64,000 bases of DNA from Escherichia coli (GTDB lineage Bacteria; Pseudomonadota; Gammaproteobacteria; Enterobacterales; Enterobacteriaceae): NCBI RefSeq assembly GCF_016903815.1, contig NZ_CP069973.1. One strand, given 5' to 3'. The translations under genes were made by a program, and so were the position numbers. Of the stretch, positions 54,301 through 56,286 are shown in pieces. The notes under the pieces are model-generated. The model saw nothing but the letters and a program-made list of their open reading frames with translations. It was not told where the DNA came from and did not search any database. Each line of letters starts with the position of its first letter. Position 1 is the first letter of the stretch.

Positions 54301-54415
54301 GCCATAACGTGAAGAAGCAATGACCTGGTGGTCCGTGACTTCCCTACGCTGGCATTATCCAGATCAGGTGATACGGGTATTTCTCAGCCTTCACGCAGAA
54401 GGGCACCCCGAGTCG
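54301..54415 (-). promoter_or_regulatory. TPP (thi-box) riboswitch in the thiM leader
   Basis: Minus strand reads ...ggctgagaaatacccgtatcacctgatctggataatgccagcgtagggaa... containing the CUGAGA and ACCUGAUCUGGAUAAUGCCAGCG thi-box elements. Confidence 0.85.
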
Positions 54416-54511
54416 TTTGATTGCGATGATAAATCGCAGAGGAGGATGGTAATGTCCAGCGCACGCGTTGTAAACGAGTAAAAACCGCAGTTTTACAATC
54501 GCGTTAATAAA

Positions 54512-54784
54512 TTATTTGATATAAGAATCCAGCACCTTCAGAACGACATCCAGATCTTCTTCACGTTTTAGCTCATCCCCCTGGTGAACGATGTGTTCCG
54601 TCAGATGACCTTTAATCACTTCCCGCATCAGACCGTTTACCGCGCCACGGATAGCAGCAATCTGTTGTAAAACTGCAGCGCATTCGTGCGGCTCGTCGAG
54701 CATTTTCTTGAGCGCCACGACCTGGCCCTGAATCTTACTGGCACGCGCTTTCAGTTTCTGTTTATCACGGATGGTATGAGACAT
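54512..54784 (-). CDS. rcnR: Ni/Co-responsive repressor RcnR
   Basis: 90 aa CsoR/RcnR family; divergent from rcnA. Confidence 0.9.
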
Positions 54785-54832
54785 GGCAACACCTGGTTAA
54801 TAAGAATATGAAAAATCATAGCACTATTAATC

Positions 54833-54867
54833 TACTGGGGGGTAGTATCAGGTACTGGGGGGGAGTA
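54833..54867. promoter_or_regulatory. Tandem RcnR operator motifs (TACT-G6/7-N-AGTA) in the rcnR-rcnA intergenic region
   Basis: tactggggggtagta (54833..54847) and tactgggggggagta (54853..54867). Confidence 0.75.
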
Positions 54868-54904
54868 GAATCAGATTGCCGAATTAATACTAAGAATTAT
54901 TATC

Positions 54905-55729: not shown

Positions 55730-55947
55730 CTCAATCCTTTAGGCTTGCATGTTATCTTCAGCCCAGGATGATTCTTAAATCAGCTATTTCCGCTGACTCT
55801 CTGCTCGCTAAGGATGCTTTTAGGGCATCCTTTCATTTACACTTTTTACGAAATCATGGGATCACTAACAAAATATCGCTTGCCAGTTATATTGTATGGC
55901 AGGAAAGATATGCGACTGATATTACAGATCCCCAAAGTGGAGAGTTT

Positions 55948-56286
55948 ATGACCATTAAAAATAAGATGTTGCTGGGTGCGCTTTTGCTGGTTACCAGTGC
56001 CGCCTGGGCCGCACCAGCCACCGCGGGTTCGACCAATACCTCGGGAATTTCTAAGTATGAGTTAAGCAGTTTCATTGCTGACTTTAAGCATTTCAAACCA
56101 GGCGATACCGTCCCAGAGATGTACCGCACCGATGAGTACAACATTAAGCAGTGGCAGTTACGTAACCTGCCCGCGCCTGATGCCGGGACGCACTGGACCT
56201 ATATGGGTGGCGCGTACGTGTTGATCAGCGACACCGACGGTAAAATCATTAAAGCCTACGACGGTGAGATTTTTTATCATCGCTAA
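55948..56286 (+). CDS. rcnB: Periplasmic Ni/Co homeostasis protein RcnB (YohN)
   Basis: Start at MTIKNKMLLGALLLVTSAAWA signal peptide; about 112 aa. Confidence 0.8.
   Translation: MTIKNKMLLGALLLVTSAAWAAPATAGSTNTSGISKYELSSFIADFKHFKPGDTVPEMYRTDEYNIKQWQLRNLPAPDAGTHWTYMGGAYVLISDTDGKIIKAYDGEIFYHR

Follow-up and report, generated by a model that had tools for sequence, protein, structure and literature searches.

Two near-identical G-tract motifs lie between two divergently transcribed genes of an Escherichia coli chromosome, and the question raised by this locus is what the pair does and which protein, if any, recognizes it. With a probability of about 97%, the motifs are the operator that the divergent rcnR and rcnAB promoters of E. 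coli have in common, a reading in which binding and metal response are taken from the literature. The feature is already known and its regulation is textbook material rather than new, although it is a genuine regulatory element that can be recognized from raw sequence. The DNA analysed, called the window here, is a single stretch of 64,000 nucleotides in which direct reading and a pattern search place the following elements:

54833-54847, plus strand: RcnR operator site 1, TACTGGGGGGTAGTA (TACT-G6-T-AGTA), a type 1 site of the CsoR/RcnR family; exact TACTGGGGGGNAGTA match, nearest rcnR, published RcnR site
54848-54852, plus strand: spacer TCAGG, 5 bp; length conserved, sequence not conserved except for its first base
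54853-54867, plus strand: RcnR operator site 2, TACTGGGGGGGAGTA (TACT-G7-AGTA, N = G); exact match, nearest rcnA

The initial annotation, made from the letters alone, had reported two near-identical motifs 5 bp apart, and reading, pattern search, and repeat search return its strings and coordinates exactly to the base. The sites start 20 bp apart and are scored by the repeat search as a two-copy direct repeat of 15 nt with 93% identity. Each contains TACT, an unbroken G6, one further base, and AGTA, with the 4-bp arms inverted, as in a type 1 operator. The earlier assignment to the TACT-G6-N-AGTA class of RcnR operators is borne out by these two exact matches and by papers that state the same sites. 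The further description of a tandem G-tract palindrome holds in part: the arrangement is tandem and the TACT/AGTA flanks are inverted repeats, but the G-tract core lacks symmetry, and site 2 repeats site 1 directly rather than in inverted form.

A search of both strands with TACTGGGGGGNAGTA, allowing up to two mismatches, finds sites 1 and 2 as the sole matches in the 64-kb window, and shuffled sequence searched with two mismatches gives a mean of 0.18 matches. The base composition of the window predicts 4.9e-4 exact single sites and, for same-strand tandem pairs whose spacer is 3-8 bp long, 1.2e-11 occurrences. Shuffling and base composition together rule out a chance origin of the motifs. 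G or C runs of six or more occur seven times in the window, and two of these are the G-tracts of sites 1 and 2.

The motifs are located inside a 120-bp gap (54785-54904) between the divergent ORFs rcnR and rcnA. Both gene identities are supported by NCBIfam scores and RefSeq annotation, which confirms that this is a divergent rcnR-rcnA promoter region, as first proposed. The genes of the system are:

54512-54784, minus strand: rcnR, Ni(II)/Co(II)-responsive repressor, 90 aa; full-length match to NCBIfam NF011613, 197 bits (cut-off 138), and Pfam PF02583
54905-55729, plus strand: rcnA, nickel/cobalt efflux pump, 274 aa; NCBIfam NF007454, 560 bits, Pfam NicO PF03824, and RefSeq annotation
55948-56286, plus strand: rcnB, periplasmic accessory protein; Pfam RcnB PF11776, 67.8 bits, and RefSeq annotation

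The ORFs, the family scores, the RefSeq annotation of an identical record, and the 20-bp spacing all describe a tandem pair of sites between divergent rcnR and rcnA. The rcnR DNA is the same as that of RefSeq WP_000019944.1 in a 100% identical E. coli record. RcnR is set apart by its H-C-H-H sensory motif (PMC11672702), and the window translation contains His3, Cys35, His60, and His64. Given the full-length RcnR equivalog match and the presence of these residues, the cognate repressor is intact. The product of the rcnA ORF has the His-rich loop typical of RcnA, and rcnAB is one transcription unit (PMC4124493). The order of the locus is yegX-thiD-thiM-(TPP riboswitch)-rcnR/rcnA-rcnB-yehA-yehB.

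Two features of the neighboring genes are recorded in passing. The mechanical ORF list starts rcnB at 55768, giving 172 aa (55768-56286, plus strand); the 112-aa product from 55948 is backed by RefSeq and the Pfam RcnB match, and its N-terminus looks like a signal peptide. Searched against the NCBIfam models, rcnB gave no match. The TPP riboswitch of thiMD (54324-54420, minus strand; RF00059, 71.8 bits, full length) is a known, RefSeq-annotated element situated upstream of thiM-thiD; the 3′ end of rcnR is about 90 bp away.

The window comes from an E. coli chromosome. A 481-bp segment spanning the sites matches several E. coli chromosomes with annotated rcnR and rcnA at 100% identity, and of 5426 complete E. 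coli genomes, 5367 contain this region. For the 120-bp intergenic region, 3685 of the 5360 genomes that carry it (again out of 5426) are at least 99% identical. The window was also aligned with six other E. coli genomes picked down the similarity ranking, among them the K-12 derivative DH1. Between 54802 and the rcnA start, a segment that takes in the two sites with their spacer and flanks, no base differs between the window and DH1, and the DH1 RcnR has the same accession (WP_000019944.1) as the record identical to the window. The sole intergenic difference from DH1 is at 54801, 32 bp outside site 1, with T in the window and C in DH1. The DNA used in the published binding work was presumably that of E. 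coli K-12. Since sites, spacer, and flanks are identical to K-12, the pair is the RcnR operator of E. coli itself and does not merely resemble it; species, locus, and genes are the same, with no difference within the operator. That the regulation was already known, as the initial annotation stated, follows from this identity to K-12 DH1 and from published descriptions of the same two sites.

Several variants were seen within the aligned strains. C at 54801 is shared by the five other strains sampled, and this position falls in the interval that separates the rcnR start codon from the putative rcnR -10 element described below. The site 2 G-tract (window 54857-54863) is G7 in the window and K-12, G8 in E. 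coli H2 (L085), and G6 in E. coli 3036 (L087); these two lengths may be a real homopolymer polymorphism or an assembly error. E. coli WW2 (L089, NZ_CP081881.1, 1501-1643) contains a 23-bp tandem duplication, GGGGGGGAGTAGAATCAGGTACT, aligned to window 54853-54875, which creates a third TACT-G7-AGTA site 8 bp past the second. The same strain has a tyrosine recombinase gene in place of thiM, beside the TPP riboswitch.

Binding, stoichiometry, and metal response come from published work on the identical E. coli sequence and on its Salmonella equivalent. For E. coli, the sources are papers that cite Iwig and Chivers 2009 (J Mol Biol 393:514) and Blaha et al. 2011 (Biochimie 93:434). These papers describe two TACT-G6-N-AGTA RcnR sites in the E. 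coli rcnR-rcnA intergenic region (PMC3902906, PMC7055735, PMC7105576, PMC5146963), each bound 1:1 by one RcnR tetramer through contacts to the TACT/AGTA inverted repeats (PMC3902906, PMC5146963). In the same papers, the A-form character conferred by the unbroken G-tract is part of recognition (Iwig and Chivers 2009, as cited in PMC3902906 and PMC5146963), and possible wrapping of distant or flanking DNA by RcnR is mentioned (PMC5146963). Another paper places both sites between the two transcription start sites and describes RcnR as autoregulatory (PMC4124493). Three reports describe repression at both divergent promoters and release of the repressor by Ni(II) or Co(II) (PMC5146963, PMC4124493, PMC7105576). 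The distance between site centers is given as 19 bp (PMC5146963), compared with 20 bp measured in the window.

The Salmonella study provides the binding constants. A 35-bp rcnRAPro duplex with both sites is bound by two RcnR tetramers, and the KDNA is 1.5e-7 M for apo-RcnR, at least 5.9e-6 M with Ni(II), and at least 1.5e-5 M with Co(II) (PMC5016687).

From these reports, a mechanism for the window operator can be proposed. One metal-free RcnR tetramer would sit on each 15-bp site (TACT, G-tract, AGTA), and recognition would combine contacts to TACT and AGTA with shape readout of an unbroken G-tract that has some A-form character. The bound tetramers would occupy the core of both promoters and thereby repress rcnAB and rcnR. 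Cytoplasmic Ni(II) or Co(II) would bind RcnR and lower its DNA affinity 40- to 100-fold or more, upon which the repressor would leave and the efflux pump RcnA and its partner RcnB would be made. A spacing of 20 bp (or 21 bp) is about two helical turns, which is consistent with same-face binding (PMC5146963).

Related systems show which parts of this arrangement are shared. The Salmonella enterica rcnRA operator-promoter likewise has tandem sites between rcnR and rcnA, two tetramers, and binding weakened by Ni(II) and Co(II) (PMC5016687). In S. enterica subsp. diarizonae (L025), both 15-mers are identical to those of the window while the spacer is TTACA rather than TCAGG; RcnR is 94% and RcnA 73% identical to the window proteins. 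The closest paralogue of RcnR is E. coli FrmR, which acts at the frmRAB promoter (PMC5146963), and against the FrmR model the window RcnR reaches 76 bits, which is under the cut-off of that model. The FrmR operator shares the plan of a G/C tract between short AT-rich inverted repeats, present twice, but its sites have ATAC/GTAT arms, 9-bp G/C-rich tracts, centers 31 bp apart, and a larger inverted repeat, and its effector is formaldehyde, not a metal (PMC5146963). CsoR type 2 operators, such as that of Streptomyces lividans CsoR, are recognized by the same protein family and are also G-tract pseudopalindromes with GTA dyads and A-form character (PMC3902906). They differ from the window sites in having two short, interrupted G/C tracts and arms about 11 bp apart, in binding two tetramers per site, and in responding to Cu(I) (PMC3902906).

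Two core promoter elements can be placed around the sites, and their exact overlap with the operator is predicted rather than taken from the literature:

54866-54871, plus strand: putative rcnA -10 hexamer TAGAAT, overlapping the AGTA arm of site 2; placed from conservation of AGTAGAaTC
54816-54824, minus strand: putative rcnR extended -10, TGCTATGAT on the minus strand; placed by reading the sequence and by the partly conserved ATA.CA (TG.TAT as reverse complement)

With these placements, the right arm of site 1 would fall at the -35 position of the rcnA promoter, and site 1 would lie at roughly -24 to -38 of the rcnR promoter. Both -10 placements agree with the published statement that the sites are between the start sites (PMC4124493) and with the conserved blocks. 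A simple promoter scan of the window called neither the putative rcnA -10 nor the rcnR extended -10. TTGCCG-16-TATTAT (54876-54903) was considered as the rcnA promoter and rejected: a single base pair separates the end of its -10 from the ATG, and its score is no better than that of shuffles (2 found, 1.1 expected).

A Fur-box-like stretch, AATACTAAGAATTATTATC (54886-54904, plus strand), is located directly upstream of the rcnA start codon and matches GATAATGATAATCATTATC at 14 of 19 positions. About 0.7% of random 120-bp pieces of the window contain a Fur-like match that scores this well, and the stretch is not conserved in the cross-species profile.

The distribution of the tandem pair was determined in a scan of one genome per species, covering about 100,000 species, with the pattern TACTGGGGGNNAGTA-N(3-8)-TACTGGGGGNNAGTA, which is blind to neighboring genes. 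The scan returned 82 loci in many Enterobacterales genera and in Vibrio, Shewanella, and Chromobacterium, and these loci were then searched by tblastn with the window RcnR and RcnA. Because the set was picked by the motif itself, invariance of the specified bases holds by construction and is not evidence. The evidence independent of this selection is confined to the co-occurrence with rcnR and rcnA, the N positions, the spacer, and the flanks.

All 79 loci with at least 150 bp of upstream flank contain a divergently oriented RcnR homolog (58-100% identity), its start codon 44-98 bp from site 1. Of the 76 loci whose downstream flank is long enough, 73 have an RcnA start at a distance of 31-41 bp past site 2 (72 under a stricter filter, with L026 added from the tblastn comparison), and the three loci without RcnA are from Shewanella. 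Among 82 loci drawn from about 100,000 species genomes, the tandem pair thus occurs only beside rcnR homologs, which makes for a clean comparative picture.

The conservation is uneven along the operator. Pair polarity is constant in related loci, with the G6-T site toward rcnR and the G7 site toward rcnA. Among 83 sequences, the consensus N is T at site 1 in all 83 (window 54843) and G at site 2 in 82 (window 54863). Of the spacers, 65 are 5 bp long and 18 are 6 bp long, and their sequence takes 38 forms in the 83 sequences, except that the first base after site 1 (window 54848) is T in 82. Outside the pattern, the only conserved block on the rcnA side among 64 unique loci is AGTAGAaTC, just after site 2. 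A weaker block, ATA.CA, is partially conserved about 10 bp before site 1 in the group with 5-bp spacers.

Two other explanations of the motifs have to be weighed against this record. The G6 and G7 runs could be slipped-strand contingency tracts that shift promoter spacing and cause phase variation of rcnA or rcnR, instead of or besides serving as repressor sites. In favor of this are the altered site 2 tracts of H2 (G8) and 3036 (G6) and the 23-bp duplication with a third site in WW2, all found among the six other E. coli genomes sampled. Single-base homopolymer differences between assemblies are, however, a common sequencing artefact, and G6-G7 runs are short for efficient slippage. In addition, 3685 of the 5360 E. 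coli genomes that carry the intergenic region match it at 99% identity or more, and the 82 species-level loci all show this 15-bp frame, though the pattern itself demanded it. The literature searched contains no report of phase variation of rcnA, and this explanation is considered highly improbable.

Alternatively, the motifs could be chance or structural DNA (G-quadruplex or A-form) to which no protein is dedicated, or they could be bound by a different regulator, for example Fur. Against this stand the tandem-pair expectation given above and the presence of an rcnR homolog beside the pair in every one of the 79 loci with upstream flank. G-tracts do confer an unusual DNA shape, which is itself invoked in recognition (PMC3902906, PMC5146963), but the locus has only two long G-runs, and the canonical four-tract G-quadruplex is therefore rejected. 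The nearby Fur-like stretch, which speaks for Fur, lies outside both motifs, and a Fur box was rejected as their explanation, with no support found in the literature searched. Direct RcnR binding to these sites is published (PMC3902906, PMC5146963, PMC5016687), and the published footprints and anisotropy data in effect refute an account without RcnR, which is left with almost no credence. The shared RcnR operator is the reading retained here.

As a published operator for sensing surplus nickel and cobalt and switching on efflux, the pair has little weight as a discovery. Synthetic biology already uses it as a part that makes expression inducible by cobalt and nickel (PMC7105576, PMC4124493), and it serves as a portable cobalt-responsive element (PMC7105576). 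The mildly new point is that the N bases and the polarity of the pair are conserved in a site-specific manner across genera, a sequence pattern that hints that the two sites are not equivalent. The conserved N/T positions might double as promoter elements or set different RcnR affinities, such that rcnR and rcnAB would be de-repressed at different metal levels; this proposal is regarded as doubtful. If the sites were non-equivalent, natural variants (the G6 and G8 forms of site 2, the third site of WW2, and the C-tract site of Enterobacter, Lelliottia, and Klebsiella) would shift the nickel/cobalt set-point.

The C-tract site was seen when the 21 bp before site 1 were compared in 14 sampled loci with a 6-bp spacer and an RcnR about 60-64% identical to E. 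coli RcnR. Thirteen of these 14 have a third, oppositely oriented site, TACTCCCCC(T/G)GAGTA, at a distance of 6 bp upstream of site 1, and RcnR identity in the 13 is about 62-64%. These triple-operator loci (L010, L016, L040, L045-L048, L051, L055, L068, L074, L075, and L083) belong to Enterobacter, Lelliottia, and three Klebsiella species. In that 21-bp stretch, the third C-tract site is absent from K. pneumoniae ATCC 13883 (L060) and from the window.

The three Shewanella loci (L002, L027, and L028) have the RcnR-type operator in tandem together with an RcnR homolog of 67-68% identity, but lack RcnA. The 116-123-aa protein encoded on the site 2 side had no family match above threshold, its sub-threshold Pfam matches being GlpM (E=0.006) and DUF3147 (E=0.12). 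Its gene (L002, 787-1137, plus strand; L027, 8542-8913, minus strand) encodes a multi-pass membrane protein, which may be a different Ni/Co-regulated membrane protein.
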